A stretch of DNA of 64,000 bases from assembly GCF_014841125.1 (NCBI RefSeq), contig NZ_JACYTQ010000007.1:203257-267256 (forward strand), written 5' to 3'. The stretch comes from Echinicola arenosa. GTDB lineage: Bacteria; Bacteroidota; Bacteroidia; Cytophagales; Cyclobacteriaceae. Below are positions 23,555 to 41,291 of the stretch, piece by piece (the stretch's first letter is position 1; each line of letters opens with the position of its first letter). Below the pieces are notes generated by a model. It saw only the letters and a program-made list of their open reading frames with translations, did not search any database and was not told where the DNA came from. Position numbers and translations under genes: made by a program.

Positions 23555-24189
23555 AGTTCTGGTTCCACAGCATTTTCCTCGATCAAAGCATAACGCTGGA
23601 TCCATTGAATAATACTGTCCAAACCTGTGTCATTCATGAGGTTGGTAAAAACGAAAGGCTGTCCATTTCTCATTTTGCGGGAGTCATTTTCCATTACTTC
23701 CAAATTGGCATGAACCATAGCCGCCAAATCAATTTTATTGATGACCAAGAGGTCTGATCGGGTAATGCCCGGCCCTCCTTTTCTCGGGATTTTTTCCCCT
23801 TCAGCCACTGAGATGACAAAGATGGTGACATCAGCCAAATCTGGGCTGAAAGTAGCAGATAGGTTGTCTCCTCCGCTTTCAATAAATATTATTTCTACAT
23901 CAGGATGTCTGCTAACCATTTCATCTACTGCTTCCAAGTTCATGCTAGCGTCTTCTCGTATAGCTGTATGAGGACAGCCTCCAGTTTCTACACCAATGAT
24001 TCGGTCTTCTGGTAACAGGGAGTTTGTGGTCAAATAAAGGGCGTCTTCTTTGGTGTAAATATCATTGGTGATGACACCTATGCTGTAACCTTTGGCCATT
24101 CTTCTGGACAGCCTTTCGATTAAAGCAGTCTTTCCAGACCCAACTGGGCCTGCTATACCAATTTTAATGTATTTTCTTTCTTCTTTCAT
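23545..24189 (-). CDS. ureG: urease accessory GTPase UreG
   Basis: P-loop [20 protein letters not shown] metal motif (GGCPHTAI). Start chosen at [15 protein letters not shown]; the longer ORF uses a non-ATG start. Confidence 0.9.
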
Positions 24190-24199
24190 AGCTAAATGA

Positions 24200-24925
24200 T
24201 TAAGACATGTAAAGCCTTGAATATAGGTTTTCATGCTGCATACTTCTGATATCAAAAGCAGGGTTACAAAGACCCAGCATTTCAAGATCAAGGTTCAGAA
24301 TATCCTTGGTAACTTCCTGGATCATGGTGTGGGTACCGAAAAGAATTCTTTGTCCATCCATTTGTCCTAAAGGAACCAGCTTAACCGCATTGGTCATCAT
24401 GGCTACTGTGGCATTGTAAAGGAATGAAGCTATGGCATCTTGCATTGGAATTTCTAACAGAGCAGTGATCAGCCCATATACCACAGGAAAATACCCATAT
24501 GCGGACTTTTCTTTGACTTGGTGCTGGAACTCCTCAAGAAGGGAGGAGTCAATAAATTCAATATAGATTTTTAATAGCCTTGTCCCCATCTTTACACTTG
24601 CCTCTCTGATTTCCATAGGGGATTTCAGTGCATGACTTTCAATATCCAAAGCGACCAGTTTCTCAATGTCTTTGGCAGAAGTATATGCATGGGCTAGACT
24701 TACCAAGAAGCCATCATTGTATTTGTAGTTGTTTTCTAGCATGGCTTTGATGAACTTTATGGTGCTTTGGACATCTTTGACCAGACCTTGCTGCACGTAA
24801 GTCTCCAGTCCATTGGAGTGAGAAAAGCCACCAACAGGCAGCGTTGGATCCGCGATATGCAGAATATGAAGCAATTGACCACCCGAATGGGTATAAGTTA
24901 AATTTTTATTTTTCTTGATGCCCAT
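24200..24925 (-). CDS. ureF: urease accessory protein UreF
   Basis: 241 aa helical protein between ureE and ureG. Confidence 0.7.
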
Positions 24926-24929
24926 TAGG

Positions 24930-25433
24930 TTATTCTTTAGTGGTCAATTCCAGAATCTTGGAGAAAAGGGATCCTCCTTGCTTGCCATGGGAATGATCCA
25001 CATTGGCTTTTAGCATGTTCAATAGTTTGCAATGGGTTTTAGTAACTTGATATCCTGTGGCAATCAGCAATCTCTCAAGTGGTTTTTCGTACGGAACCAA
25101 TACTTTATCATCCTGAATAAAGAGTGGTAAATGCTTATTGCCTATTTCATAGCAAATGGTACCCATTTCATACATTGACCTCGGGGTGATCTCAATGGCA
25201 TCACAAGGTGAAATACTAACTACGATCAATTTGGTCTCATCCTCAAAAAGAATGTCACCTTCCAAAAGTCGGCTGCCTTCTCTGAGGAATTTTATAGCCA
25301 CCTCAGTGCCTGTGTCAGTTGTTTTGCGCAAAATACGTTTTGGGGCTTCAAACCATTCCAATTTTAATTCTTCGACCTTTTTGTTGTCAATGGGATATGA
25401 GGAAAGATTGCCTAAGACTTGTTTGCAGATCAT
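24930..25433 (-). CDS. ureE: urease accessory protein UreE (Ni metallochaperone)
   Basis: 167 aa with a His-containing C-terminus (NVDHSHGKQ), between ureC and ureF. Confidence 0.7.
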   Translation of the reverse strand: MICKQVLGNLSSYPIDNKKVEELKLEWFEAPKRILRKTTDTGTEVAIKFLREGSRLLEGDILFEDETKLIVVSISPCDAIEITPRSMYEMGTICYEIGNKHLPLFIQDDKVLVPYEKPLERLLIATGYQVTKTHCKLLNMLKANVDHSHGKQGGSLFSKILELTTKE

Positions 25434-25457
25434 ATTTAGGGATTGGGTGATATGATA

Positions 25458-27185
25458 TCAAAATAGGAAATAACGTTGTGCCAGAGGGAGTACTTCTAAA
25501 GGTTCACAAGTAATTACCTTACCCTCAACGGAAACTTCATAGTTTTCTGGATTGACTTCTATAACCGGGGTCTTGTCGTTATGGATCAGGTCTTTTTTTC
25601 CAATGTTTCTACAACCCTCTACGGGCACAACCTCTTTTTTTAACCCATATTTTTCTTTGATGTTGTTTTCCAATCCTGCTTTAGAGATGAAAGTGACAGA
25701 GGTTTTTTCAAGGGCGCTGCCATGGGCTCCAAACATATTCCGCATGATTACAGGTTGAGGGGTAGGGATGGAGGCGTTGGGGTCTCCCATTTTGCTGGCG
25801 GTGATCATTCCACCCTTAATTACCATTTCTGGTTTTGCCCCAAAGAAAGCAGGCTTCCACAGTACCAGGTCAGCTATCTTTCCCGATTCTATGGAACCGA
25901 CATGTTTAGCGATTCCATGAGAAATAGCGGGGTTGATGGTGTATTTGGCAATGTATCTTTTGACCCTGAAGTTGTCCGCTTGAAGCTCTCGGTCTTCAGG
26001 AAGGAAACCTTGTTGAATTTTGTTTTTATGTGCAGTTTGCCAGGTTCTGGTAATGACTTCACCCACTCTGCCCATGGCCTGAGAATCAGAACTCATCATA
26101 CTGAATACGCCCATATCATGGAGGATGTCCTCCGCTGCGATGGTCTCCTTTCGAATTCTTGAGTCTGCAAAGGCAACATCTTCCGGGATAGATTTGCTCA
26201 AATGATGACAGACCATCAACATGTCTAAATGCTCATCAATGGTGTTTTTGGTGTACGGACGGGTAGGGTTGGTCGAGCTGGGTAATACATTGGGAAATGA
26301 AGATATTTTAATGATGTCCGGAGCATGCCCCCCACCGGCCCCTTCAGTATGGAAGGTATGGATGGTTCTTCCTTTAATGGCATTTACAGTATCCTCAAGA
26401 AAACCAGCTTCATTAAGGGTGTCTGTATGGATAGCAATTTGCACATCGAATTCATCTGCTACTTTCAGTGAAGCATCTATCACAGCAGGCGTCGCGCCCC
26501 AATCTTCATGGATTTTAAGTCCGAGAGCTCCGGCTTCTACCTGCTCTTTGAGTGGGGCTAGGGTACTGCAATTTCCTTTTCCAAAAAATCCCAAATTCAT
26601 AGGGTAATGGTCGGCTGCTTCCAGCATTTTTTGGATATTCCATGCTCCAGGTGTGACGGTGGTGGCATTGGTGCCATCGGCAGGGCCAGTACCTCCGCCG
26701 ATCATGGTAGTGATGCCGCTAAACAGTGCATGTTCTATTTGTTGGGGACAAATAAAATGGATATGAGCATCTATTCCTCCTGGAGTCAGGATATGTCCTG
26801 CTCCGGAGTGAACCTCGGTTGAAGCTCCTATGATCAAGTCAGAATGCACTCCGGACATGGTGTCTGGGTTACCAGCTTTTCCTACACCGACTATTTTACC
26901 ATCCTTGATCCCTACATCTCCTTTTACTATTCCCCAATGGTCAATGATGATGACATTAAGAATGACAAAATCCAATACGCCTTCATTTCGAATATTGGTA
27001 GAGGCTTGAGACATTCCGTCACGTACGGTTTTTCCTCCTCCAAACATACTTTCTTCACCATAATGTTCGCTGTTGAAGTCTTTTTCGATTTCAATAAATA
27101 ATTCTGTATCCCCTAGTCTTATTTTGTCACCTGCCGTTGGGCCATAGATATTGGCATATTTAATCCTCTTGACTTTAAAGCTCAT
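25458..27185 (-). CDS. ureC: urease alpha subunit
   Basis: 575 aa; [32 protein letters not shown]...; active-site region MVCHHL... Confidence 0.95.
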
Positions 27186-27556
27186 ACATTTTCAGTTTTA
27201 AAATTTTTTGATTTGATTTTTTGCATGGCTTTGTCAAGGCTATTGGAAGATTGGGTGTCTCCTTGGGTAAGGTTATTGGCACCATAGGCCTTTTGAGCAC
27301 CGCTAAGTGGGATTAAGCTTACTTCAGTGCTTTCACCTGGCTCAAACCGTCTTGCTGTTCCTGCCAGGATATCCATGCGTTTTCCAAATGCTTTTGAACG
27401 ATCAAATGAAATGGCTTTGTTGACTTCAAAGAAATGAAAGTGCGAGCCAACCTGGATGGGGCGATCACCAGTGTTGGTGACTTCTATTGAAATGCTTGTA
27501 TGCTGGGCATTACAGACTATAGGTTCATCTTTTAAGATATATTCTCCTGGTATCAT
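27182..27556 (-). CDS. ureB: urease beta subunit
   Basis: 124 aa [17 protein letters not shown]... Confidence 0.9.
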
Positions 27557-27578
27557 GGTGTTGTGATTTGTGTGGTTT

Positions 27579-27881
27579 TTAGCGGATAGGATTGTGTACG
27601 GTCACCAGTTTAGTTCCATCTGGGAAGGTAGCTTCAATTTGTACATCATGGATCATTTCTGCTACCCCTTCCATTACATCTTCCTTCGTGAGAAAGGTGG
27701 CTCCAATCTGCATGAGTTCTGCAACAGACTTTCCATCTCGAGCCATTTCGTGCAATCGTGCACTTATGAGCGCAATGGACTCAGGATAGTTTAATTTTAC
27801 ACCTCTGGCTTTTCTTTTTTCAGCCAATTCACCGGCAAGGAAGAGCATGAGTTTTTCAGTTTCTCTGGGGGTGAGCTTCAT
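27579..27881 (-). CDS. ureA: urease gamma subunit
   Basis: 100 aa [34 protein letters not shown]... Confidence 0.9.
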
Positions 27882-28103: not shown

Positions 28104-28856
28104 CTACAACTTCTTTTTTAACTTCATAAACTCCTGTTCCAAAAAAGCTAACTTTTCTTCGATTTCTACATTACTTTCAAGGGCTTTTTTGGCAAAGGTG
28201 AATTTGATGAGCCACAGTTCTTTAATCTCAGATAAGTTGAGGTATAAATCATCTATATTTCTATTGGCTGCCCTTAAAGTAACTGTGTTGCCAGAAAGAA
28301 AAAATTTCCTTAAGACCAATTGACTACTAGTGACAATCAGAACCAATTCGCCATTTTCTATTTTATGATAATCTTCATGATCAACGAACTCACCTAGGAC
28401 CATGTCTTTTGGTAGCAAACCTTTATCATGGTTGGTCATCTCAAGATTGGAAATAATATACCCTCGATATCTTTTGGTATCAGTAATGGGAACTTGGATG
28501 ACAGGCAAATCTTCGATGAAGTGCGGTTTGTCATGGAATTTGATATAATCTACTTCATTGTTGGAGGTGATGCAAGGGATTTTTGGGAAGCTGTCCTTTT
28601 GATTGATTCCGTGCAAGGTGAGGTCCCCTTTGAATTTCAGTAGTTTGTTGACGGTAAGCTCAGTAGTCAATAGATCATCAATAGATATGCTAAAGTAATT
28701 AGCAATTTTGATGATTGTTTCTAATTTTGGTTCGCTTCTACCTTCTTCATATGCACCCAAAGTGCCTCTTTTTAATTCGAAAAGCTCAGCGAAAGCTTGT
28801 TGGCTAAGCTTTTTAACATTTCTGATTTTCCTAATATTTTTACCAAAATTTGACAT
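28104..28856 (-). CDS. XRE-family HTH regulator with C-terminal LexA/S24-like (or cI-like) domain; putative repressor of the divergent psp-flotillin operon
   Basis: N-terminal HTH IRKIRNVKKLSQQAFAELFELKRGTLGAYEEGRSEPKLETIIKIANYFSISIDDL. ~250 aa with a beta-rich C-terminal half, divergent from the 29118-33044 operon. The catalytic Ser/Lys dyad was not confidently identified. Confidence 0.55.
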   Translation of the reverse strand: MSNFGKNIRKIRNVKKLSQQAFAELFELKRGTLGAYEEGRSEPKLETIIKIANYFSISIDDLLTTELTVNKLLKFKGDLTLHGINQKDSFPKIPCITSNNEVDYIKFHDKPHFIEDLPVIQVPITDTKRYRGYIISNLEMTNHDKGLLPKDMVLGEFVDHEDYHKIENGELVLIVTSSQLVLRKFFLSGNTVTLRAANRNIDDLYLNLSEIKELWLIKFTFAKKALESNVEIEEKLAFLEQEFMKLKKKL

Positions 28857-28885
28857 TTATTGCTAAAATAATTTGCATATAAAAA

Positions 28886-28900
28886 TCTATTGCGTATATT
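28886..28900. promoter_or_regulatory. candidate operator half-site (TATACGCAATA-like, inverted relative to the 29075-29093 site)
   Basis: CTATTGCGTATAT is the reverse-complement-like partner of TATACGCGAATA, 180 bp away in the divergent promoter region. Confidence 0.2.
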
Positions 28901-29074
28901 TATCTAACAATATTAGCGAATTGTATCGGTAAATACTAATGTGTTTAACAGTAAAATGAATTTTGAGCCAGTTTTTTGTATTTGTGCTAACAAAATTAGA
29001 TAGCGTAATGGGGTTAGATTTAATTTGTTAGTTATAGAGTACTTGAAAAGGACTTAAAATAGCCAGATTTTCGT

Positions 29075-29093
29075 ATTATTATACGCGAATAAT
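29075..29093. promoter_or_regulatory. candidate operator: inverted repeat ATTAT-ACGCGA-ATAAT immediately upstream of the psp-flotillin operon
   Basis: TATTATACGCGAATAAT, ~25 nt upstream of the ATG at 29118. Confidence 0.25.
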
Positions 29094-29117
29094 TTTATCA
29101 ACTTAAATCATTTTGAA

Positions 29118-29513
29118 ATGAAAGATCACTTTCAGATAACAAAAGACTTTTTACTTGAACTTAATTTTGATGTTGTCTTCGAAAATAAGGATGAAGGAAT
29201 ATTGATGGTTCATAAGGAGAATTTTGGTATAAAGAATTTAATCCTCGGTGTAGCCCCACCAATTTTAATAATGGAGCAGTTTCTTTTTAAGATCAATAAT
29301 CAATCTGATAAGATATATAAGAACCTACTCCAAAAGAACAGGGATATCATTCATGGTGCTTTTGTTTTAGATGAGTCAGGTAAAAAGGTGATTTTCAGGG
29401 ATACATTGCAGATTGAAAATATGGACCTAAATGAACTTGAAGGGTCACTGAATAGCCTGAGTTTATTAATGAGTGAGTATTCAGAACAAATAATTGAGTT
29501 TTCTAAATATTAA
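29118..29513 (+). CDS. small cytoplasmic protein, possibly YbjN/T3SS-chaperone-like fold; first gene of the psp-flotillin operon
   Basis: 131 aa, acidic, mixed alpha/beta composition, 12 nt upstream of pspA. The family assignment is a guess from size and composition. Confidence 0.45.
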   Translation: MKDHFQITKDFLLELNFDVVFENKDEGILMVHKENFGIKNLILGVAPPILIMEQFLFKINNQSDKIYKNLLQKNRDIIHGAFVLDESGKKVIFRDTLQIENMDLNELEGSLNSLSLLMSEYSEQIIEFSKY

Positions 29514-29524
29514 ATATTAATGAC

Positions 29525-30241
29525 ATGAACATTTTTAAACGATTATTCAAAATAGGAGAGGCTGAAGCCAATGCAGCCATTGATAAAATGGAAGACCCTA
29601 TCAAGTTGACGGAGCAAGGAATCCGTGATCTTAGAGAGGACCTCAACAAAAATATGGAAGCCCTTGCCCAAGTAAAAGCTTTGGCCATTAGAGCAAAGAA
29701 TGACCAAGAGGGCTATATAGAAAAGAAAGAGGATTATCATAATAAGGCGGTGCTGATCCTGAAAAAGGTTCAACAGGGAAGTATGGATGCGACAGAGGGA
29801 GACAGACTTGCTAAAGAAGCGTTGTTGAAGAAAGAGGAGATGCAGCAGCATGTTGCCAGGACTGAAGGGGAGGCGAACAAATTCAATGACAATGTGGCTC
29901 AACTTGAAAAAAACATTCAAACTATCAAATCCAGTATTGGCAATTGGGAGAATGAGCTCAGTACTTTGAAGGCAAGGGTAAAGGTCAGTAAGGCCACCAA
30001 AAGTCTGAATAAGCAAATGGCCGAAATTGATAGCAGCAGCACTGTTTCCATGCTTGAAAGAATGAAGGAAAAGGTTGCCCAAGAAGAAGCGCTGGCTGAA
30101 GCTTATGGTGAAATTGCTGGAGCTTCTAAAACGATCGATGATGAATTGGAAAAAGCCGCAAGTTCTTCAGAAGTCAAAGCAGAGGATGACTTGAGCAAAC
30201 TTAAAAATCAATTGGGGTTTAACGAAGATAAAAATACCTGA
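29525..30241 (+). CDS. pspA: PspA/IM30/Vipp1-family protein (bacterial ESCRT-III superfamily)
   Basis: MNIFKRLFKIGEAEANAAIDKMEDPIKLTEQGIRDLREDLNKNMEALAQVKA... aligns by eye with the E. coli PspA N-terminus ([40 protein letters not shown]...). 238 aa, all-helical. Confidence 0.85.
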   Translation: MNIFKRLFKIGEAEANAAIDKMEDPIKLTEQGIRDLREDLNKNMEALAQVKALAIRAKNDQEGYIEKKEDYHNKAVLILKKVQQGSMDATEGDRLAKEALLKKEEMQQHVARTEGEANKFNDNVAQLEKNIQTIKSSIGNWENELSTLKARVKVSKATKSLNKQMAEIDSSSTVSMLERMKEKVAQEEALAEAYGEIAGASKTIDDELEKAASSSEVKAEDDLSKLKNQLGFNEDKNT

Positions 30242-30243
30242 TC

Positions 30244-30942
30244 TTGGATAGTTTAATTAACATCATCTTTTCTCAGGTCAACATAACCTTGACCATTTTC
30301 CTTATTTTACTGGTAGTGTATTGGTTATTGACCATGATCAGTGGAATTGACTTTGAACTGGACGTAGAGATCGATGTGGATGTTGATACTGGAGTGGATG
30401 TAGATGGAGGAGGCACTGAGTTTCAGGATATATCCAATGCAGAAATCCATAAAGACGAGGTGGTAGGCAAACGGATACAACCACTAAAATGGTGGCAGAT
30501 CTTTTTGATTTACTTCAATTTTGTGGGTTTGCCTTTTATGTTTACCCTTACCTGTTTTGTGTTTATCTGGTGGTTCAGTACCGTCCTGCTTACTGCAGTC
30601 ACAGTATCTTATGAGAATGTATTTGGTTTTGGGATTCTGATCGTGACCTTTTTTGCTTCATTGATCCTTACCAAAATCTTTACGACTCCATTCAAAGGAT
30701 TCTTTAAACACTTGAACAAGGATGGGGACAAGGCCAATGACTTTATAGGAAGACAAGGAATATTGCTTTCTTCCATATCAGGAAATAAAATGGGAAATGC
30801 AGAAGTTCATATCAATGGAGATTCGATGTCCATTTATGTCAAATCATTGAATGGAGATGCATTGAATTATCAAGACAGAATACTAATTATCAAGCAATCT
30901 GCTGACAAAAACTATTTTTTAGTTCAATCATATAACGACTAA
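30244..30942 (+). CDS. NfeD-like membrane protein (YqiJ/YuaF/YdjH-like) with acidic repeat linker and C-terminal OB-fold
   Basis: N-terminal TM helix, an acidic DFELDVEIDVDVDTGVDVDGGG tract, two or three more TM helices, and a C-terminal beta-rich domain (GRQGILLSSISGNKMGNAEVHINGDSMSIYVKSL) resembling the NfeD OB domain. Sits 3 nt after pspA and 15 nt before the flotillin gene. Confidence 0.55.
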   Translation: MDSLINIIFSQVNITLTIFLILLVVYWLLTMISGIDFELDVEIDVDVDTGVDVDGGGTEFQDISNAEIHKDEVVGKRIQPLKWWQIFLIYFNFVGLPFMFTLTCFVFIWWFSTVLLTAVTVSYENVFGFGILIVTFFASLILTKIFTTPFKGFFKHLNKDGDKANDFIGRQGILLSSISGNKMGNAEVHINGDSMSIYVKSLNGDALNYQDRILIIKQSADKNYFLVQSYND

Positions 30943-30956
30943 ACTATTTTATCAAA

Positions 30957-33044
30957 ATGAATCATTTAATACCAATTATCGGGATTGGATTAGGGGGAGT
31001 ATTGTTCCTAATCGTAGTATATTTCATCATTATAGCGATGTTTTATCGGAAGGTTCCACAAGGCCGGGCAATTATTAGAACTGGTTTTGGCGGGACTAAG
31101 GTGGCCACTGACAAGGGGCTCTATGTGATACCTGTTTTCCATAAGGTGGAGATCATGGATATTTCAGTCAAAAAGATCCAAATTGAGCGTTTGGCCCATG
31201 AGGGATTGATCTGTAAGGACAATATGCGGGCAGATATCAAGGTAGCTTTCTTTGTTCGGGTAAACAATGATGTGGCCTTTATCAAAAGAGTGGCCCAAAC
31301 AATTGGGGTAGACAGGGCTTCCAGGATTGAAACTTTGGAAGACCTATTCGAAGCGAAGTTTTCTGAAGCACTCAAGACTGTTGGTAAGAAGTTCCAGTTT
31401 ATAGAGCTTTATGAGGCGAGAAGGGAGTTTAGGGATGAAATTGTGGACATCATAGGTACAGATTTGAATGGTTATACCTTGGAGGATTGTGCCATTGACT
31501 TTTTGGAACAAACGCCTATTAGCCATTTAAAACCAGACAACATTCTGGATGCAGAGGGGATCAAGAAAATCACTGAGCTTACAGCTGTTCAAAATATGAA
31601 AGCCAACCTGATTAAACGGGATGAGCAAAAAACCATAAGAAAGCAGGATGTGGAAGCTAGAGAGGCGATTTTGGAATTGGATAAGCAACTTGCTGAAAAA
31701 GAGGAACAACAAAGACGAGAGATTGCGAATATCAAAGCCCGTGAATCTGCTGAGATCAGTAAAGTCGCAGAAGAAGAAAGATTAAAGTCTGAATCGGCAC
31801 GAATTGCTACGGAAGAAAAAGTGAGGGTGGCTGAAGAGAATATGGCCCGTCAGGTGATTGTAGCGGCCAAAAACAAGGAGCGTACAGATGCTGTGGAGAC
31901 AGAAAGAGTGGAAAAAGACAGAATGCTTGAAGCCACAGAGAGAGAGCGTATTGTAACTCTTGCACAAATTGAGAAAGAGAAAGTAGTAGAAGTAGAGAAA
32001 AAGAATATCCAAGATGTGATCAGGGATCGCGTGATGCTAGAAAAAGGAGTGGTTGAAGAGCAGGAGAACATGAAAGATATTCAGGAATTCAAGACTGCCG
32101 AGCGTGAGAAGCAAGTGAGAATTACTATTGCTGAGGCCAATGCGCAAGAAGAATTGATCAAAACGATCAAAGCAGCAGAGGCTCAAAAAGAAGCAGCAAA
32201 ATCCAAAGCGGAAGAAATCAATATTGAGGCGCAAGCTAAGAAAGAAGCCAGTGAAAAAGAAGCAGAAGCTAGGAAGACCATTGCCGATGCCAAAGCGAAG
32301 GAAGAAGCAATTATTGGTATGTCAGAAGCCCAAGTAATGCATGCGAAGGCTGATGCCAGTGAAAGACAAGGTGTCGTAGAAGCGTTGATCATAGAGAAGA
32401 AAGCCAGGGCTGAAGCGGCTGGAATAGAAGCCAAAGCAAATGCAAACCTTAAAGAAGGGGAGTCTGAAGCAGAGGTGATCAAGAAGAAAGCCTTAGCTGA
32501 TGCTGCTGGAATCGAAGAAAAAGCGGCAGCGATGAAGAAGCTGGATGGGGTAGGTAAGGAGCATGAGGAATTCAAGCTTCGTCTGGATAAGGAATTGCAG
32601 GTAGACCTTGCCAATATCAATATTCAAAGAGATATCGCCGATGCCCAAGCGCAGGTGATCAGTGATGCCCTTAAAGCAGCCAAAATTGATATTGTGGGTG
32701 GAGAAACCATGTTCTTTGACCAGATAATTGGACAGATTACCAGAGGAAAAGGTTTTGATAGGCTTGTCCAGAACAGTAGTAATATCCAAGAAATCAAAGA
32801 GTCTATCTTAGGGGATGATTATGCCAAAGGAAACCTTTTGGAAAAAGTAAGGAATTTCTCCAAGAAGTATGGTATTTCTTCCGAAGACTTGAAAAACTTC
32901 ACTATTGCCAATCTATTGATCGAACTCCAGGAGCGGTCAAAGGATAAGGATGAGCAAAGTATGCTTGGCAACCTATTCAATATAGCCAAGAGCTTAGGGC
33001 TTTCTGATCAGAAAATTTCTGGTTTGAATAATAAAATGGTGTAA
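30957..33044 (+). CDS. flotillin/SPFH (band-7) family protein, YqiK/FloT/YdjI-like, with a long E/A/K-rich coiled coil
   Basis: N-terminal TM plus SPFH domain (YRKVPQGRAIIRTGFGGTKVATDKGLYVIPVFHKVEIMDISVKKIQI...), then ~350 aa of EA-repeat coiled coil. 695 aa. Confidence 0.85.
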   Translation: MNHLIPIIGIGLGGVLFLIVVYFIIIAMFYRKVPQGRAIIRTGFGGTKVATDKGLYVIPVFHKVEIMDISVKKIQIERLAHEGLICKDNMRADIKVAFFVRVNNDVAFIKRVAQTIGVDRASRIETLEDLFEAKFSEALKTVGKKFQFIELYEARREFRDEIVDIIGTDLNGYTLEDCAIDFLEQTPISHLKPDNILDAEGIKKITELTAVQNMKANLIKRDEQKTIRKQDVEAREAILELDKQLAEKEEQQRREIANIKARESAEISKVAEEERLKSESARIATEEKVRVAEENMARQVIVAAKNKERTDAVETERVEKDRMLEATERERIVTLAQIEKEKVVEVEKKNIQDVIRDRVMLEKGVVEEQENMKDIQEFKTAEREKQVRITIAEANAQEELIKTIKAAEAQKEAAKSKAEEINIEAQAKKEASEKEAEARKTIADAKAKEEAIIGMSEAQVMHAKADASERQGVVEALIIEKKARAEAAGIEAKANANLKEGESEAEVIKKKALADAAGIEEKAAAMKKLDGVGKEHEEFKLRLDKELQVDLANINIQRDIADAQAQVISDALKAAKIDIVGGETMFFDQIIGQITRGKGFDRLVQNSSNIQEIKESILGDDYAKGNLLEKVRNFSKKYGISSEDLKNFTIANLLIELQERSKDKDEQSMLGNLFNIAKSLGLSDQKISGLNNKMV

Positions 33045-33049
33045 TGCTT

Positions 33050-33085
33050 AAGGCTGCCACCTTTCGGCAGCCTTATTTTTTTTTT
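33050..33085 (+). terminator. rho-independent terminator after the flotillin gene
   Basis: AAGGCTGCC-ACCTTTC-GGCAGCCTT followed by T11. Confidence 0.7.
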
Positions 33086-33144
33086 GCAGGGGGAGTGCTA
33101 TACACAAGTCACATTCCCAAATAATAATCAAGATTGATTAAGAA

Positions 33145-36100
33145 ATGAAGCAAGACGATCAAAGCACGGTAAATAAAGATGCATTGGATGGTGGAACCTA
33201 TGAAATTATCCGTAAAAGGCTGGAAGGTCATAAGGATGATTTACAGATGAGATTACATCAGTTAAATGAATCTCGAAAAGGGGTATTTGGCTCCCTGGAG
33301 ACCAAGTTAATAGCTAATAATAGGGTCAGTACAGAAAATAACTGTGTGGCCAGAGATATTATTTCTTTGGGCAATACTTGTATTTTTGGTTATAATGTCC
33401 ACTTTGGCTTACGAACTGATATTAAGCTATCTGATGTATTTAGTATTTACCAGTTTGATGAGAATAGGTTTGAGCAAGTATCGCTCGGTTTGATTGAAGA
33501 GGATGCCTTTGTAAATGACTTTTCCAACCTCTACAAGTACTATCGGAATACTATTTTTTCCAAGTTTACCATAATAGGCAATTACCTTTATATGGTTTTT
33601 CAGCTTAGTGAGAGCGTCACAGATATCAAAACTTTTAAGTGGTTGATTGCTGATAAGAAATTAAAGTATATCGATAACCGGAGTGATCATGAGTATAAGT
33701 TTCCCAAGCAGCATCAATTCAGTTGGCAAGAAGCCACAAGGGATATGCAGCGGTATGGGAAGCACTCTCATGTTTCCATTATGGATAAGGTTTTTGTGGA
33801 GACCATTGGAGGGGATTTGACCATCAAAATCGAGGACAATACCGATGATGGTATGGGAATTTATTCCGAGCCAGTTGACTACAGAGATCAAACTTTGGAT
33901 GATGGACAAATCAGGTTTGCGGATTTGGGCAATTTGATTGTTTTGGAGATCAAACCATTTCAGGAAAGGGCACGCTATTTTGTGTACAACCATAAAATGC
34001 AGGAAGTCCAAAAAATTGACTCTATAAAAGACGCAGCCGTATTATTGCCAGATGATCAGGGAATCATATTTCCCAATGGATATTATTTGCAAACGGGGGA
34101 ATATCATGTTTTTAATAATGATGTCGACCAACTTAAGTTTGTTGGGGCTGTGGCTTCTCCAAATGGGGAGGATTATCTATATAAGTTTTATGCTTCCGAA
34201 AAGGGAACTTATGTTCTTATGGATTACAATGTCATAGAACAGGAAATAAAAACACCTATTGTTTGTGGTGGTTTTACCATCCTTCCCAATGGGGAATTGT
34301 GTTACTTCAAAGCAGAGGACGAGCAGACAAAGCACCATATGATGCAGATATGGCAAACTTCCTACCTGGAAGGAGATATTTTGCCGTCGGAACATCAAGA
34401 TACTCTTTTGTATAAAATCGGTAACAAGGACATCGTTAAAGCCATGGCCGAATCTCATGAGCTGATCATTCTCCTCAATAAAGAAGATAACTATGATGGC
34501 CTTTATACAGATGTGGCCAAGCTTTCAAAGGATATTTTAGATGCTTACTATTGGCTTCATGAAGTTGAAGCGGGACAATTGAGTAAGCCTTTAAAGGCTA
34601 TTAATGAAGCGGCCAATGCAGCTATCGATGAATTCCAAAAGGTAGTCCAACTCAAAAAGAATGCTGCAGGCAGTACCAAAGAAATCCAAGATAAATCCCA
34701 GACACTTTTTAATAAAATTAAGGGTACTTCATTTAGGAGCATTGATGAATTTGTGGATTTGCTTGGTCAACTGAGATCCATAAGGGGAGAGGTGATAAGT
34801 CTTTATGAGATAAGGTATATAGATGAGTCATTGCTTAGATCCTTGGAGGAAGAAATAGCCCATCATACCAATAAAATTTCAAGAAGGTGTGTGGCGTTTT
34901 TATTGGATGAAAAAGCGCTTCTGCCTTATCATGGCAAAGTCACTGAGAAGCAACAACATCTTGAGCAGGTCACCAAGGTTGTTGAGGCGAAACAGCTGGA
35001 AGAAGAGGTCAATCAGGTGGCGAAAGACTTGGAAATGTTGATTGATATTGTCTCTAACTTGGAGATTGAAGATACTTCACATTCTACTAAAATCATTGAT
35101 AATATTTCACTGATTTTTGCCACTATTAACCAGTTAAAGGCTGCGATTAAGAATAAGGGAAAGCTTCTGGGCAGCAAAGAGGCAAAGGCTGATTTTGCCG
35201 CTCAGTTAAAGCTGATTGACCAGAGCATTATCAATTACTTGGATATTGCTGCTACTCCTGAAAAGTGTGATGAATTCTTGACAAAAGTAGGCGTTCAGCT
35301 GGAAGAGATCGAAGGGAAATTTGCTGATTACGAGGATTTTGTTTCGGATATTATTGAAAAGAGGGAAGAGGTATACAATGCTTTTGAAAGCAAAAAGGGA
35401 GCGATTACCGAAAAGAGACATAAAAAGGCCATAGCTCTTAAATCAGCCTCAGAGCGGATCCTTAAGAGCATTGGAAAAAAAGCAGAAAGCTTAAAGTCTG
35501 CGGATGAAATCAACGGGTATTTTGCCGCAGATATAATGGTGTCCAAATTAAGGGACATTATTGAGCAACTTAGAGAGCTAGATGACAGCGGAAATGCGGA
35601 GGAAATAGAAACATCTCTGAAGACCAGTAAAGAGGATGCGCTTAGAAAGTTAAAAGATAAACTTGATCTCTATGAAGATGGGGAAAATATTATCAAGTTA
35701 GGCAAGCATAAGTTTGGAGTGAACCGTCAAGAGCTGGATTTAACGATAGTTACCAAAGATAAAAATCTTTGCTATCATCTCAGTGGGACTGATTTCTACC
35801 ACGAACTTCATCATGAAGTTTTGGATAAGAGCCAAAAGTACTGGAGCCAGGAGTTCGTATCAGAAAATGAAGAAGTTTATAGGAGTTCCTATTTAGCTTA
35901 TAAGGTATATATGGATAAAGATCCTTTGGAACTAGCCCGATTGGATGTAGCCGAATTATTGAAAGTAATTCAAGAGGAGAGCAGTAGCAACTATTCGGAA
36001 GGTTATGTAAAAGGGGTTCATGATGAAGATGCCGCTGCAATTCTGAAGATGCTTGTACAAAAGCATGAAGAGTTGAAGATATTGACTTATCCATCCACCG

Positions 36101-38013
36101 TCCGGGCCTATGCCCAATTTTTCTGGTTTAGCTTGGAAAAGAATGAGCAAGAGGCTTTAAATCATTCCATTAAAGCTTCTGGTTTAGTCCTGAAGTTTTT
36201 TCCTTCATCGAAGGAATATGACTTTTTGATCGAAGAGTTAGAAGAGTCCATTGCAAAATATGGTGAAGCTTCAGGTCTATTTACAAGCTTTAAAGCCAAT
36301 GCCATTGCGCATTATTTGTTTGATGAACTCCAAAGCGATGATCATTTTGCTCTTAGTAGCAGCGCTGCGAAAATTGTAGAGGGATTCAAGCAGATGCTGG
36401 TTAAGGAAAAAGCCCAGGATCAATTTCACCATAATTTGGAAAAACTGGTTAGCCTTTCGTCAAAAGTGAAGCTTTACAGGCAGTGGTTAAAGGCTTTCGT
36501 AAAGGTAAGTCAAGGTACGGATGACTTAGAGTATATTGATGAAGCCGTTTGTGTTTTGCTCTTGCAGGAAGGCAAAAGAAACCTGATTTCGGCTAGCCCG
36601 TTTGCAAAAATCCAAGGCCTAAAAGGGGAGCATAACACTATCAATCATGGAGAGATGAATTTCAATTACCATGATTTCAGTGCACTTTTGGATCATTTTG
36701 TCAATCAGGAAGTGGTGGCATTTAATGCTTATCGAAAGGCCAAGCATCAAGTAACAGAGGAGCTTAAAGATCAGCTGAAATTGGAGGAGTTTAAGCCTAG
36801 AGTATTGACCTCATTTGTTAGAAATAAACTTATCGATCAAGTTTACTTTCCATTGTTTGGAGAAAATTTGGCCAAACAATTAGGTAGTGTGGGGGATAAT
36901 AAAAGAACGGATAGAATGGGGATGTTGCTCTTAATCTCGCCTCCCGGTTATGGCAAGACTACTCTAATGGAATATATATCCAATCGGTTGGGATTGGTTT
37001 TTATGAAAATCAATGGTCCGGCAATCGGGCATGAAGTTACCTCAGTAGACCCTGCTTCAGCCACCAATTCTGCCGCGAGGGAAGAGTTGAAAAAACTCAA
37101 TCTGGCTTTTGAGATGGGCAATAATGTGATGCTTTATTTGGATGATATCCAGCACTGTAATCCTGAGTTTTTACAAAAATTCATCTCCTTGTCCGATGGT
37201 ACTCGGAAGATTGAAGGGGTTTTTAACGGAAAGCCCAAGACCTATGATCTTAGAGGGAAGAAGTTCTGCGTGATCATGGCTGGAAATCCTTACACGGAAA
37301 GCGGTGAGAAATTCAAGATTCCTGACATGCTGGCAAATAGGGCTGATATCTACAACTTGGGGGATATCATTGGGGATACAGCCAGTTTGTTTAAGCTAAG
37401 TTTGATTGAGAATGCACTTACATCCAATGCTGTTTTGCATCAGCTAAGCAGCAAAAACTTTGAAGATGTCTATACTTTAATCAATAGAGTGGAGAACAAT
37501 GCGGAAAATGGAGAGCTTAAAGGTAATCATACGACACAAGAAGTTCAGGATTATGAAGCTGTACTTAGAAAGGTGTTGAATATCAGGAACACAGTTTTGA
37601 AAGTAAATGAGACTTATATCAAGTCTGCAGGTATGGAAGATGAGTACCGTACAGAACCATCATTTAAGTTGCAGGGCTCTTACCGGGATATGAATAAGCT
37701 GGTGGCCAAAGTGGTGCCGATTATGAATGAAGCAGAGCTAGATGGATTGTTGCTTTCACACTATGAAAATGAGTCTCAGACCTTGACAGCGGCAGCAGAA
37801 GCCAATCTACTAAAATACAAAGAACTGAGAGGAATGCTTAGCTCAGAGGAAGAAGAAAGGTGGAAATCCATCAAAACTACCTTTGCAAAAAACAACAAGT
37901 TAAAAGGCTTTGGGAATAAAAATGAGATGGCCCAAGTGCTTTCTCAAATGATGGCTTTTAGCGAAAATCTAGAAGGAATAAAGGCAGTTCTTCAAAAAGG
38001 CTTTGAAAAGTAA
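33145..38013 (+). CDS. giant (1622 aa) uncharacterised protein with C-terminal MoxR/AAA_5-type ATPase module. An N-terminal globular region and a ~750-aa helical/coiled-coil middle have no recognisable family.
   Basis: Walker A ISPPGYGKTT (nt 36940-36963); Walker B VMLYLDDIQH (37129-37152). Sensor/Arg region CVIMAGNPYTESGEKFKIPDMLANRADIY matches the AAA_5/MoxR pattern NP..E.G...lp.al.nRF. Uninterrupted ORF with a strong terminator after it. Confidence 0.8.
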   Translation: MKQDDQSTVNKDALDGGTYEIIRKRLEGHKDDLQMRLHQLNESRKGVFGSLETKLIANNRVSTENNCVARDIISLGNTCIFGYNVHFGLRTDIKLSDVFSIYQFDENRFEQVSLGLIEEDAFVNDFSNLYKYYRNTIFSKFTIIGNYLYMVFQLSESVTDIKTFKWLIADKKLKYIDNRSDHEYKFPKQHQFSWQEATRDMQRYGKHSHVSIMDKVFVETIGGDLTIKIEDNTDDGMGIYSEPVDYRDQTLDDGQIRFADLGNLIVLEIKPFQERARYFVYNHKMQEVQKIDSIKDAAVLLPDDQGIIFPNGYYLQTGEYHVFNNDVDQLKFVGAVASPNGEDYLYKFYASEKGTYVLMDYNVIEQEIKTPIVCGGFTILPNGELCYFKAEDEQTKHHMMQIWQTSYLEGDILPSEHQDTLLYKIGNKDIVKAMAESHELIILLNKEDNYDGLYTDVAKLSKDILDAYYWLHEVEAGQLSKPLKAINEAANAAIDEFQKVVQLKKNAAGSTKEIQDKSQTLFNKIKGTSFRSIDEFVDLLGQLRSIRGEVISLYEIRYIDESLLRSLEEEIAHHTNKISRRCVAFLLDEKALLPYHGKVTEKQQHLEQVTKVVEAKQLEEEVNQVAKDLEMLIDIVSNLEIEDTSHSTKIIDNISLIFATINQLKAAIKNKGKLLGSKEAKADFAAQLKLIDQSIINYLDIAATPEKCDEFLTKVGVQLEEIEGKFADYEDFVSDIIEKREEVYNAFESKKGAITEKRHKKAIALKSASERILKSIGKKAESLKSADEINGYFAADIMVSKLRDIIEQLRELDDSGNAEEIETSLKTSKEDALRKLKDKLDLYEDGENIIKLGKHKFGVNRQELDLTIVTKDKNLCYHLSGTDFYHELHHEVLDKSQKYWSQEFVSENEEVYRSSYLAYKVYMDKDPLELARLDVAELLKVIQEESSSNYSEGYVKGVHDEDAAAILKMLVQKHEELKILTYPSTVRAYAQFFWFSLEKNEQEALNHSIKASGLVLKFFPSSKEYDFLIEELEESIAKYGEASGLFTSFKANAIAHYLFDELQSDDHFALSSSAAKIVEGFKQMLVKEKAQDQFHHNLEKLVSLSSKVKLYRQWLKAFVKVSQGTDDLEYIDEAVCVLLLQEGKRNLISASPFAKIQGLKGEHNTINHGEMNFNYHDFSALLDHFVNQEVVAFNAYRKAKHQVTEELKDQLKLEEFKPRVLTSFVRNKLIDQVYFPLFGENLAKQLGSVGDNKRTDRMGMLLLISPPGYGKTTLMEYISNRLGLVFMKINGPAIGHEVTSVDPASATNSAAREELKKLNLAFEMGNNVMLYLDDIQHCNPEFLQKFISLSDGTRKIEGVFNGKPKTYDLRGKKFCVIMAGNPYTESGEKFKIPDMLANRADIYNLGDIIGDTASLFKLSLIENALTSNAVLHQLSSKNFEDVYTLINRVENNAENGELKGNHTTQEVQDYEAVLRKVLNIRNTVLKVNETYIKSAGMEDEYRTEPSFKLQGSYRDMNKLVAKVVPIMNEAELDGLLLSHYENESQTLTAAAEANLLKYKELRGMLSSEEEERWKSIKTTFAKNNKLKGFGNKNEMAQVLSQMMAFSENLEGIKAVLQKGFEK

Positions 38014-38019
38014 TAAAGT

Positions 38020-38058
38020 AACAGACCTGGGTCAATGCGTAACTTCTGTGTCGCATTG
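38020..38058 (+). terminator. rho-independent terminator after the giant ATPase gene
   Basis: GGTCAATGCG-(12 nt)-CGCATTGACC followed by TTTATT. Confidence 0.7.
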
Positions 38059-38251: not shown

Positions 38252-39610
38252 TTACTCCTGCGAAATCAATTCTAAGGCCTGCTCATAATCGAGGTCTTTT
38301 TCATCTATTAAATCCTGAATGGAAGCTTTAATAGGGTAGTCTGGTAAAAGTCCCCTGTTGGAAGTGGTTTGCTTTTGCGAAACTGGAAAAAGCAGGTGAA
38401 AGCGAGGTATTCCGATATTGATGGAGGAGTGAGGTAAGCTGATGTATTCTTTGGATCCTGCGGCAAAACCTTCGTACCTCGTCCCCGTTTCTGTACCAAT
38501 GACAATGGCATCTCCATATTCTTTTAGATACCTGGCCAAGGTTGATCCGGCAGAGAATGTTCTGCCATTGACCAAGACATAAATAATTCCTGTAAAAGCA
38601 TGGCTGGACTTTTTCGGGATTTTATAAACGCGCTCTTTACCACTCCAAGAAATGCTTTTCTTCAAAAAAGGATCATTGGTAGTTCCCTTCATAATATAGG
38701 GCACCATATCATCTGCAAATTCGTTCCGTCCTCCAGTATTATCCCTCAGGTCTATTATCAGTGAGTTGATATGATGATTTTCTAAAGAGGTAAAAATCTC
38801 TTGGTAGAAATCCCTTGAGTGAATACCATATTTTTTGATCAGTTGGATATCAAATGATTTTAGCTTGAGTAAGGCATGGCCTTTCTTGAAATGCAGCTCA
38901 TAAAAATCTTTAATACTTTCTTCTTGAGGTTTGGAAGGCAAATTCAACGCTTTATAACTGCTGACCTGCTCTTCTCTGGTCAATGCTTTGATTTTTGTCT
39001 CAAGGATCGGCTCTTTGGGACTGCTTTGGTACTTGATCTGAAAGTGATCCTTCTGATCAATGTAAAAATAGTATATCCAGGGAAAGCTAAGATTGATAAT
39101 TTGGTCAGCATAGGTGATGATTTCTCCATCAGAAGGGGTGGCAAGGCGTAGTCGGTTAAGAATATCTTCAGCGTTCAATCCATTGATCGAAATGATTTTG
39201 TCTCCTTGGTTCATAATAGGTTTTAGGGAGTAATCACGCCAAACATAGAGGTCATTATCTATAACCTTTATAGCTATAGGCAAATACTTGAATTTATTTT
39301 GGGGAATCCCATTATGTACAGTGTCAGACCAATTCCCCAAAGCAAAGTGACCTTCATCGCTTAATGCACAAATCTGGCTGATATAAGTGAAATAAGCATT
39401 CAAGGATATTTCATCTTGATAAATCGCATCAATGATTCTTGTACTTGCTACATGGAAATCAGGTTTGTAAATCTTGAGAGCTGGGTTATATTTTTCAATG
39501 TTGTCTCTCAAAAAAGTGAGGTCCGCAATGGCATCGTTTTTAGAAAGATGCTGAGAAAATGCAAGATGAAAACTTAGTAAGAAGCATATTATTCCCAAAA
39601 GAAATTTCAT
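38252..39610 (-). CDS. S41-family peptidase (C-terminal processing/tail-specific protease-like), secreted
   Basis: Signal peptide MKFLLGIICFLLSFHLAFS at the internal Met (start moved to 39610). Catalytic region GIIYVLVNGRTFSAGSTLARYLK (Ser nucleophile) with Lys downstream. Confidence 0.75.
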   Translation of the reverse strand: MKFLLGIICFLLSFHLAFSQHLSKNDAIADLTFLRDNIEKYNPALKIYKPDFHVASTRIIDAIYQDEISLNAYFTYISQICALSDEGHFALGNWSDTVHNGIPQNKFKYLPIAIKVIDNDLYVWRDYSLKPIMNQGDKIISINGLNAEDILNRLRLATPSDGEIITYADQIINLSFPWIYYFYIDQKDHFQIKYQSSPKEPILETKIKALTREEQVSSYKALNLPSKPQEESIKDFYELHFKKGHALLKLKSFDIQLIKKYGIHSRDFYQEIFTSLENHHINSLIIDLRDNTGGRNEFADDMVPYIMKGTTNDPFLKKSISWSGKERVYKIPKKSSHAFTGIIYVLVNGRTFSAGSTLARYLKEYGDAIVIGTETGTRYEGFAAGSKEYISLPHSSINIGIPRFHLLFPVSQKQTTSNRGLLPDYPIKASIQDLIDEKDLDYEQALELISQE

Positions 39611-39740
39611 TCGCAGGATATTTTGGTAGAGCGTAGTGTTACTTAAACATAGCTTTTGATCTTTTAATATCCAATACCTTATCTCGAAGGGACAAAGAAA
39701 AATCCCGGAATTTTCCGGGATTGGGTTTTTAAGGATATGT

Positions 39741-41291
39741 TTATATTCCTGTTTTGAAATGGCTGTGGTTGGGTTGGCAAAACATGTATCCATGATCAAT
39801 ATAACGACCAGGAGGGTTAGTGGTTAATGGGTTTCGAAGTACATTGATCAATCGGGTATAATCAGCAGGAGGGGTACCGTTTTGAATATCTTGATTTCTG
39901 AGTAAAACTTCATTGTGGAGAATAGTTCCAATGCTACTGGCGAACGTTCCGCAGGCCCCATTTGAAATAGTACTATTTGCATCTGAAGCAGCAAAGCTTG
40001 TGGTGCATTCATAAGGTGCATGGAAGGCTATGTTTTTTGTGGTTACCGTTGCTCTGGCTGCTCTGCCCAAGTTTTCAAGACCGTCTATAATTCTCGGCGT
40101 ACAGCCAGAGTAGCAGGTGATTTCAGTAGTAAACCAAGCACATGTTTTTCTTTTAAGTGCATTGTAATTTCCTGTATGAAATCCATTGCGAAGAACTCCT
40201 GGACCAGCTTGGGCTCCAAACACTCCTGGACAAGGGCTACCATGGCCCCTTACGATTTCCATCACCAGTTCCTTACCAGCTCCAATGGCAAGCCTGTGAG
40301 TGTTGATGGCATTGTTTACAGCAGTATGTTCGTTTCTGTTATGAGTCCTTGCAGCAGTTATGGATGCTTGACTTGGAGAATAAATGGTAAAGCCTCTTAC
40401 AACCGTAGGCGTGGGGATTTCTTTCATATAGGGTGTAATGTGCGTGAGGTTACAGCCCAAGGTAGGCAGTTCATCTGCCATAGGATCTGCATCAAATTCA
40501 AACCAAACTTTTTTGGAATAATCTATGACCAGTGCTTCACAGCCTCCCCCTCTTTGTGGACATTCCAGGGGTGATGGTGGTGTAGGAGGAGTGATTACTA
40601 TACTGCTGTCTTCGACGGCTTCAGTTTCTTTATCTAAATAACCTATGGGCAGATAGAGATGATAATTGTTTTTTAAGCCGACTTTCAGTCTTAAATCAAA
40701 ATATTCCATATCTAAGTCAGGTGGGAGATGGATGTCAAATACCGCTTCGCTTTGGCCAACCTCAATGGGGTATTCTTTATAAGTTGAATAAATAGAGATG
40801 TCCAATTCCTCATAGTTTGGGATAAAAAACTGAAAATGCCCATTTTGTAAATCAAGATAATTGGCTGCTATCCAGAAGTTGGAAAAGGAACAGGAAAAGT
40901 AAGGTTGACTATATAAAGTAAACTCATCACCTTGACTTTTTTCCAGGAAGCTTGCTAGCAGGGAGCGGTCTTCATCATTGATTTCTCCATTGGCATTGAT
41001 GTCCGCAGCGATAGCACAGGGGATTTGATCAATACTTCCAGAATTGAGCATATTATTGATAGTGTTGATGTCGTCGGTATCTACCTTCATATCTTCATTG
41101 ATGTCTCCCATGATAAATAAGGGCGTGAAGTTGGCCGGTAAATTTTTCAAGGCCGTTCCTGGTTCCGAAACAGGAACATGGTTGACGAGCGTTTCTTCAG
41201 AAATAGTGATATTACTTTGCTCTCTTTGGTTTCCTCCTTCGCACGAAAACAGCAGAAGTACTGTTACGAGGTTTGCTATGTAGGATTTCAT
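39741..41291 (-). CDS. lipoprotein with dockerin-like Ca-binding repeats and Cys-rich C-terminal domain, function unknown
   Basis: Lipobox LLFSCEGG. Two D-x-N/D-x-D-G repeats (DINEDMKVDTDDINTINNML / ADINANGEINDEDRSLLASFL) resemble dockerin type I / EF-hand-like pairs. C-terminal ~250 aa is rich in C, G, T and N. Confidence 0.45.
   Translation of the reverse strand: MKSYIANLVTVLLLFSCEGGNQREQSNITISEETLVNHVPVSEPGTALKNLPANFTPLFIMGDINEDMKVDTDDINTINNMLNSGSIDQIPCAIAADINANGEINDEDRSLLASFLEKSQGDEFTLYSQPYFSCSFSNFWIAANYLDLQNGHFQFFIPNYEELDISIYSTYKEYPIEVGQSEAVFDIHLPPDLDMEYFDLRLKVGLKNNYHLYLPIGYLDKETEAVEDSSIVITPPTPPSPLECPQRGGGCEALVIDYSKKVWFEFDADPMADELPTLGCNLTHITPYMKEIPTPTVVRGFTIYSPSQASITAARTHNRNEHTAVNNAINTHRLAIGAGKELVMEIVRGHGSPCPGVFGAQAGPGVLRNGFHTGNYNALKRKTCAWFTTEITCYSGCTPRIIDGLENLGRAARATVTTKNIAFHAPYECTTSFAASDANSTISNGACGTFASSIGTILHNEVLLRNQDIQNGTPPADYTRLINVLRNPLTTNPPGRYIDHGYMFCQPNHSHFKTGI

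Follow-up and report, generated by a model that had tools for sequence, protein, structure and literature searches.

The 64,000-nucleotide window analysed here (Echinicola arenosa, contig NZ_JACYTQ010000007.1, positions 203,257 to 267,256 of the forward strand) carries a block of six genes encoding an XRE-type regulator, a CesT/Tir-like protein, a PspA, an NfeD-like protein, a flotillin and a giant protein of 1622 amino acids (aa) with an AAA+ ATPase module. A preliminary description of the window had taken this block for a candidate undescribed membrane system in which a dedicated ATPase stands next to PspA together with a phage-repressor-like regulator. Open reading frame (ORF) calls recovered the six genes exactly where that description had placed them, with urease genes upstream and an S41 peptidase gene downstream as it had stated:

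28104-28856, minus strand: XRE regulator gene (xre), 250 aa
29118-29513, plus strand: CesT/Tir-like gene (cesT), 131 aa
29525-30241, plus strand: pspA, 238 aa
30244-30942, plus strand: NfeD-like gene, 232 aa, TTG start
30957-33044, plus strand: flotillin gene, 695 aa
33145-38013, plus strand: giant ATPase gene, 1622 aa

Along cesT-pspA-NfeD-flotillin the spacers measure 11, 2 and 14 nucleotides (nt), which bears out the short spacing reported earlier, if not its range of 3-15 nt. The flotillin and ATPase genes are separated by a gap of 100 nt, and xre and cesT diverge from an intergenic region of 261 bp.

The operon class represented by this block has already been catalogued. In section 19 of their study, Popp et al (2024; mSystems, PMC11237479; preprint 2020) described an operon composed of CesT/Tir-PspA, YqiJ/YuaF, band-7/flotillin and a beta-propeller/coiled-coil/AAA+ protein, and their Table S3 lists Dokdonia donghaensis ANH61663.1 with the same gene order, including "<-cHTH+Protease". 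The same authors noted that abbreviated operons without PspA are more widespread and proposed a role in chaperoning and membrane dynamics (PMC11237479). The Dokdonia locus recovered here (Dokdonia sp. Hel_I_63) matches their row gene for gene, the upstream PadR-PspC-Toastrack genes included. It has all six genes of the window block, identically ordered and oriented, the two giant proteins being 71% identical, and differs in its left neighbour, which is PadR-PspC-Toastrack in Dokdonia and the urease operon in the window. Because the exact operon, and with it the whole block, already belongs to a described system, the claim of an undescribed one has to be withdrawn; the locus is almost certainly a further member of the catalogued class and not a new system. 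Literature searches combining SPFH with MoxR, and PspA with flotillin, NfeD and ATPase, returned no experimental study of the operon.

The Dokdonia genes directly upstream of the block (L087:402-4714) constitute a second phage shock protein (PSP)-type system, with PadR, PspC together with LiaI-LiaF-TM and Toastrack, DUF4440 and DUF2807. This second system is not found in the window flanks.

The composition of the module was followed in loci obtained by a pattern scan of one genome per species, from which the best 80 loci among the matches listed were taken; these come from Bacteroidota, Planctomycetota, Verrucomicrobiota, Desulfobacterota and Clostridia. ORFs were called in the 80 loci and searched with iterated profiles of the six window proteins, and a locus was considered informative when 3.5 kb or more of sequence preceded the ATPase gene (63 loci). 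The flotillin gene lies directly upstream of the ATPase gene in 61/63 informative loci from five phyla (a count that includes two Clostridia loci in which the genes overlap by 11 nt), and an NfeD gene is also present upstream of flotillin in about 60 of the 63. By comparison, pspA precedes the ATPase gene on its strand in 32 of the 39 informative Bacteroidota loci and in none of the 23 loci from other phyla. xre, cesT and pspA occur all three together in 31 loci, exclusively within Bacteroidota, and are present or absent as a set save in L041, which has PspA alone, and in L024, where PspA is encoded downstream on the opposite strand. All-against-all clustering of the 80 loci revealed no other conserved neighbour, the remaining clusters being antisense shadow ORFs within the two big genes. 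Thus, the evolutionary core is the triad of NfeD, flotillin and ATPase, to which the xre/cesT-pspA cassette was added upstream in Bacteroidota. The ATPase is first of all a partner of flotillin and NfeD, PspA is a lineage-specific addition, and the notion of an ATPase dedicated to the PspA beside it gives way to a link with flotillin and NfeD that spans five phyla.

The same six genes, with different flanks, were found in Zunongwangia, E. sediminis, Dokdonia and 28 further Bacteroidota loci, confirming that they form a genuine co-inherited module with unrelated surroundings. Since the six genes stand among differing neighbours in Zunongwangia, Dokdonia and E. sediminis, and since xre travels with cesT-pspA in 31 loci having other neighbours, the XRE gene is part of the module, as had been supposed, and not a regulator of the urease operon. 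In the window the left flank consists of the urease gamma, beta and alpha genes (ureABC) and the UreE gene, all on the minus strand, and the right flank of a Peptidase_S41 gene; in Zunongwangia and Dokdonia the neighbours have housekeeping or metabolic functions. The window and E. sediminis share synteny on the right (dockerin-type protein, TonB-dependent receptor); in E. sediminis the urease operon (window 23545-27881) is not at the left flank and the S41 peptidase gene (38252-39799) is also missing. A mobile-island origin was considered and is not supported, the block borders in the window having neither a tRNA gene nor flanking direct repeats. All proteins of the Echinicola block are much closer to their counterparts in Flavobacteriaceae (ATPase 76%, XRE 63% identity) than to those of other Cytophagales (Pontibacter, Hymenobacter and Nibribacter; ATPase 47-50%, XRE 34-38%), which suggests an old lateral transfer of the whole block into the Echinicola lineage. 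As to the S41 peptidase ORF itself (38252-39799, minus strand), its TTG start was assigned by the first-start rule and produces a 59-nt overlap with the upstream dockerin-type ORF (39741-41291, minus strand); the real start of the gene probably lies further downstream.

The giant protein matches a database protein of Echinicola arenosa at 100% identity and has the following domains:

33238-34551, plus strand: DUF3686 (PF12458), aa 32-469, E 1e-178
34912-35160, plus strand: DUF7902 (PF25472), aa 590-672, E 5e-26, within a long helical middle region
36925-37302, plus strand: AAA+ core of the MoxR/dynein (AAA_5) type, aa 1261-1386

It had been regarded as an orphan, a label that does not survive database searching: a word-indexed search returned at least 5,488 homologues at E<=1e-10, and an exhaustive search at the same threshold yielded 925 clusters (50% identity), among which full-length members reach as low as 25% identity. 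The description of a MoxR/AAA_5 module proved well founded. Pfam matched AAA_5 and AAA at about 1e-7, with AAA_5 above its cut-off, and a structure search with the AAA+ domain, whose fold is MoxR/dynein-like, placed MoxR-class proteins (NorQ, CbbQ, RavA) as the best matches. The AlphaFold2 (AF2) model of residues 1130-1622, with a predicted local distance difference test score (pLDDT) of 66 overall and 70-85 in the AAA core, places a beta-hairpin ahead of the sensor-1 strand. Across 31 diverse homologues the ATPase motifs do not vary: Walker A, SPPGYGKT; the Walker B pair D1333-D1334 in LDDIQH (37141-37146), in which Asp replaces the usual catalytic Glu; N1381 in GNPYTESG; and R1399 in IPDMLANRAD. 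Because this invariance extends down to 29% identity, it implies that the protein is an active enzyme.

MoxR-type AAA+ proteins are paired with VWA partners, as in RavA-ViaA, CbbQ-CbbO and NorQ-NorD. The window ATPase has their motif layout (NP...G..F.IP....NR) in addition to the structural likeness, and it differs from them in being about six times larger, with DUF3686, helical and DUF7902 regions, in having DD for the usual DE in Walker B, and in having no VWA partner: no VWA domain was detected in the six proteins, and the 80 loci contain no other conserved neighbour that could supply one. The remainder of the giant protein is without sequence relatives of known structure. The N-terminal 1,200 residues gave no PDB sequence match, DUF3686 included, and searches of PDB sequences with the giant protein or its family profile found similarity, to RuvB and p97, over no more than about 40 residues surrounding Walker A. 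NCBIfam contained no useful family for it, and its hydropathy revealed no transmembrane (TM) segment. According to Popp et al (PMC11237479), the DUF3686 region is made of beta-propeller repeats.

A metagenomic protein of 1345 aa, P0274, which joins NfeD1b_N to DUF3686, was considered as a Rosetta-stone fusion and rejected, residues 225-490 having the appearance of an out-of-frame high-GC translation. It is probably two neighbouring genes merged by the gene caller. In this sequence a long-form NfeD gene lies directly upstream of a DUF3686 gene.

The 695-aa protein is a YqiK-type flotillin with an N-terminal anchor, an SPFH/Band_7 domain, a long coiled coil and a C-terminal domain. The full-length sequence gave no Pfam match by hmmscan even at E 10 and no useful NCBIfam family, evidently because the coiled-coil region triggers the bias filter; when the N-terminal 224 aa were scanned alone, Band_7 was recovered at E 5e-16 (59.6 bits against a cut-off of 23.6; residues 32-176). 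Automated annotation of such flotillins can consequently overlook the SPFH domain. The protein aligns with E. coli YqiK over 445 aa (BLASTP E 1e-47, 30% identity), has a single hydrophobic segment at residues 1-34 and consists of E, K, A, Q and R to 61% between residues 220 and 560. The Band_7 match in the N-terminal fragment and the alignment with YqiK together substantiate the flotillin/SPFH label that it had been given.

For the 232-aa protein, the label NfeD-like found its support in structure. No Pfam family matched even at E 10, NCBIfam had no useful family, its family profile matched no PDB sequence, and an hhalign comparison with E. coli YqiJ was non-significant (E 0.05, probability 1%), with the C-terminal strands in register; public sources name its homologues DUF1449 or OB-fold-containing protein. 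The AF2 model (pLDDT 66) consists of three long TM helices, in agreement with the hydropathy, and a five-strand C-terminal beta domain. Its top Foldseek matches in the PDB were 2K14, the NfeD protein YuaF (E 9e-5, TM-score 0.71), 8Z5G, YbbJ, and 3WWV, 1510-C. As far as this model can be relied upon, the assignment as a YqiJ/YuaF-like NfeD protein with a C-terminal OB-fold holds. TM1 and TM2 are joined by a nearly invariant Asp-rich loop (DFxLDxDxDxDxD...EGG; 30349-30411, aa 36-56), disordered in the AF2 model and not found in E. coli YqiJ, which could serve in cation binding or sensing.

The 131-aa protein had been described as YbjN-like. YbjN and CesT do appear in Pfam as weak secondary matches, while the main match is PF22550, CesT_Tir_1 (E 3e-55; 186 bits against a cut-off of 27), over profile positions 1-130 of 131. 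The label of PspA, a member of the ESCRT-III superfamily, stands as given, on a match to PspA_IM30 (PF04012) that is full-length and above the gathering score (E 3e-42; 145.3 bits against a cut-off of 33.9; residues 2-229). Its alignment with YjfJ, a PspA paralogue of E. coli, runs from end to end (BLASTP, 25% identity, E 3e-7). It scores far under the equivalog cut-offs for E. coli PspA and LiaH and is therefore not an orthologue of either. Its orthologue was placed in the yjfJ family by Popp et al (PMC11237479).

These assignments determine which known systems the block resembles. In E. coli yqiJ-yqiK and B. subtilis yuaF-floT (SPFH2 group) the NfeD gene precedes the SPFH gene as it does in the window, an arrangement described by the SPFH-NfeD operon rule (PMC2636767); the window flotillin is 30% identical to YqiK, and the OB-fold of the 3-TM protein encoded upstream of it matches that of YuaF. 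The E. coli yqiJ-yqiK locus, however, contains no giant ATPase, PspA or CesT gene, and YqiJ is without the Asp-rich loop of the window protein. The B. subtilis pspA-ydjGHI (samGHI) operon, which had been put forward as a match for the core of the block, likewise encodes PspA together with an SPFH protein, and that protein, YdjI, is needed for PspA membrane foci (PMC8581546). In contrast to the window flotillin, YdjI is soluble and carries a Zn finger; of the two membrane proteins, YdjG is Zn-ribbon/NTF2-like and YdjH has a TPM domain, and neither is NfeD (Popp et al; PMC11237479); and the operon has neither CesT nor ATPase and is under sigma-W rather than XRE control. The match is thus reduced to an analogy, the NfeD-flotillin pair of the window being of the YqiJ/YqiK (YuaF/FloT) type. 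Finally, E. coli yjfI-yjfJ also has a small CesT-superfamily gene (DUF2170) directly upstream of a YjfJ-type PspA, but the chaperone belongs to another family, with no similarity between the window CesT and YjfI by BLASTP, and the downstream E. coli genes are polyamine-related and encode neither a flotillin nor an ATPase.

In a Pfam scan the XRE regulator matched HTH_3 (E 4e-12) and, below the cut-off, Peptidase_S24 (E 4e-4; 20.5 bits against 23.3 bits); its C-terminus contains a short coiled coil. Across the regulator family the helix-turn-helix (HTH) is almost invariant and the C-terminal half poorly conserved. An S24-like fold for the C-terminal half is nevertheless a sound prediction, because 13 of 25 family members match Pfam S24 (best E 4e-9) and hhalign aligns the family profile with residues 101-182 of E. 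coli LexA (E 3e-5). The catalytic Ser-Lys dyad of LexA (S119/K156) is not present in the aligned regulator: S119 aligns to T140, in a column occupied by T, S, V, Q or E across the family, and K156 aligns to R183. With the dyad missing, canonical self-cleavage appears unlikely, and the degenerate S24-like domain probably serves as a sensor or dimerisation module and not as a RecA-triggered self-cleaving switch. The proposed likeness of the C-terminal half to LexA/cI S24 domains holds for the fold and ends at the catalytic residues.

The xre-cesT intergenic region contains three palindromes of the form GCTAA-N5-TT(A/T)GC:

28862-28876: operator-like palindrome 1, GCTAAAATAATTTGC, read from the sequence, 5 nt from the xre start codon
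28903-28917: operator-like palindrome 2, TCTAACAATATTAGC, 41 bp from site 1
28986-29000: operator-like palindrome 3, GCTAACAAAATTAGA

Palindrome 1 occupies the same position in most Flavobacteriia loci. In related loci site 1 adjoins the xre start codon and site 2 follows at a conserved distance of 41-42 bp, and the third site is also found in L001, L004, L006, L007 and L016. In the window the strict core, CTAA-N5-TTAG, is found 5 times where 1.2 occurrences are expected; its density is 2.8 per kb over 31 xre-cesT intergenic regions and 0.034 per kb over the locus DNA as a whole, an 84-fold enrichment. The three palindromes are likely candidates for operators of the XRE regulator, to judge from their placement and density. 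An extra exact copy of CTAA-N5-TTAG lies within the xre coding sequence at 28690-28702. A further motif, TTTTGTA(T/A)TATTA (about 29069-29081), is found 33-90 nt upstream of the cesT start in the window and in about ten flavobacterial loci (L001, L004, L007 and L015 among them), and may be part of a Bacteroidota-type promoter. A scan for sigma-70 promoters, which is not designed for those of Bacteroidota, found 33 sites against 27.5 expected, and the intergenic regions matched no Rfam family.

The terminator that had been noticed behind the flotillin gene was confirmed in the flotillin-ATPase gap:

33049-33085, plus strand: intrinsic-terminator-like hairpin followed by T10

The hairpin (33049-33075) has a 10-bp stem with 6 G-C pairs. 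E. sediminis has an equivalent hairpin and T-run with a different loop, and Zunongwangia a longer hairpin at the same position. In a strict scan such hairpins were present in 14 of the 57 flotillin-ATPase gaps covered; about 9 of the 14, including that of the window, begin no more than 25 nt from the flotillin stop codon, and these are all from Bacteroidota. In other phyla the gap is often shorter than 100 nt or the genes overlap. We infer that the hairpin may act as an attenuator peculiar to this lineage, keeping the ATPase scarce relative to the scaffold proteins.

Taking these observations together, the best explanation overall is probably that the locus belongs to the catalogued operon class and acts as a membrane-stress module. 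As an alternative, the module may exist chiefly to provide PspA (ESCRT-III) polymers with a dedicated disassembly or remodelling motor, a Vps4-like role that would fall to the giant ATPase. Such a motor would account for the position of pspA, which precedes the ATPase gene on its strand in 32 of the 39 informative loci from Bacteroidota, and for the conserved ATPase motifs; according to a 2025 review no Vps4-like ATPase is known for bacterial PspA/Vipp1 polymers (PMC7619361), and Popp et al (PMC11237479) raise ATP-dependent remodelling for PspA-AAA+ pairs generally. More broadly, the pairing of an AAA+ machine with a membrane polymer or an SPFH cage is an idea common to the block, to ESCRT-III/Vps4 and to HflK/C-FtsH. 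However, PspA is missing from all 23 informative loci outside Bacteroidota, although it could be encoded elsewhere in those genomes, and the fold of the ATPase is MoxR-type. Beyond the AAA+ fold it has no homology to Vps4, lacking an MIT domain and membership of the classical AAA clade, and it differs from FtsH in having neither a protease domain nor a TM segment. The giant ATPase is not Vps4-like by descent, and a PspA motor as the main purpose of the module is improbable.

The regulator, with its XRE-HTH and LexA/cI-like fold, and the position of the block between unrelated operons had also suggested an anti-phage, abortive-infection or envelope-defence island under a phage-repressor-like switch, and the HTH does match the control-protein, RmrA and CapH models of PADLOC. 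These matches are generic to the HTH: in PADLOC-DB 2.0 the five structural genes were unmatched save for coiled-coil noise from PspA (E>2e-3), and Pfam detected no nuclease, toxin or other effector domain. The regulator is without the Ser-Lys dyad needed for SOS-type cleavage; at the borders no mark of a mobile element was found, whether a tRNA or direct repeats on either side; two Echinicola species share synteny across the right flank; and in relatives the block is flanked by housekeeping or metabolic genes. Moreover, a protein of about 1,600 aa that retains 66-76% identity across classes is unlike fast-evolving defence genes. A defence role is accordingly very unlikely, and that part of the preliminary description is not sustained. 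The least probable explanation, to which we give next to no credence, is that the giant gene encodes a DNA-repair ATPase that merely neighbours membrane genes. Its origin is nominal: NCBI and UniRef use the name 'DNA repair ATPase', the Pfam description of DUF3686 reads 'ATPase involved in DNA repair', and RuvB_N gives weak matches confined to the P-loop. The likeness to RuvB and p97 is confined to some 40 residues about Walker A, neither a DNA-binding nor a nuclease domain was detected, and the linkage to flotillin and NfeD is near-universal in five phyla. In the literature library searched, DUF3686 is mentioned in no paper, and the public name is without support.

Returning to a membrane-stress module, we propose a mechanism whose details are more tentative than the reading itself. 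The flotillin, through its N-terminal anchor, and NfeD would build an SPFH cage or microdomain at the inner membrane, on its cytoplasmic side, for which the solved QmcA-YbbJ complex, among the structural hits, and flotillin cages provide a precedent. The soluble MoxR-like ATPase would dock on this scaffold or its clients via its propeller and helical N-terminal part, spending ATP to assemble, remodel or disassemble them. In Bacteroidota, the CesT-like chaperone would hold the YjfJ-type PspA until envelope stress causes its delivery to the flotillin platform, where it would seal or stabilise the membrane in the manner of YdjI-PspA in B. subtilis. The XRE protein would bind the three GCTAA-N5-TTAGC sites and control both divergent promoters, as repressor or activator, and the terminator 3′ of the flotillin gene would lower expression of the ATPase relative to the high-copy structural proteins.

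Several observations weigh against this proposal. All of its protein-protein contacts are deduced from gene linkage, and both AF2 models, of the NfeD-like protein and of residues 1130-1622 of the giant protein, are of moderate confidence (pLDDT about 66). The Asp in place of the catalytic Glu in Walker B could make the ATPase a slow switch rather than a motor, and with so strong a terminator before it the ATPase gene might be expressed on its own. Operator-like sites 1 and 2 adjoin xre and not the presumed cesT promoter. A bolder form of the proposal, in which the giant MoxR-like ATPase is an ATP-driven remodeller of flotillin cages and, in Bacteroidota, of PspA polymers, must be considered doubtful. 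Were it true, the ATPase would be a non-homologous functional counterpart of Vps4 and the module a self-contained, transcriptionally switched membrane-repair machine.

The operon link has already been published as a comparative-genomics observation, and the Echinicola locus is another member of the class and not a discovery. The present analysis adds that the ATPase tracks flotillin and NfeD and not PspA, that the dyad of the regulator has been lost, and that the module carries a candidate operator, GCTAA-N5-TTAGC, and a candidate attenuator. This class of operon joins flotillin, NfeD and, in Bacteroidota, PspA to a large, conserved and apparently active AAA+ protein, and it is an attractive place to look for ATP-driven remodelling of flotillin or PspA assemblies in bacteria. 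For the assembly and taking apart of bacterial SPFH/flotillin cages, it offers a concrete experimental entry point.

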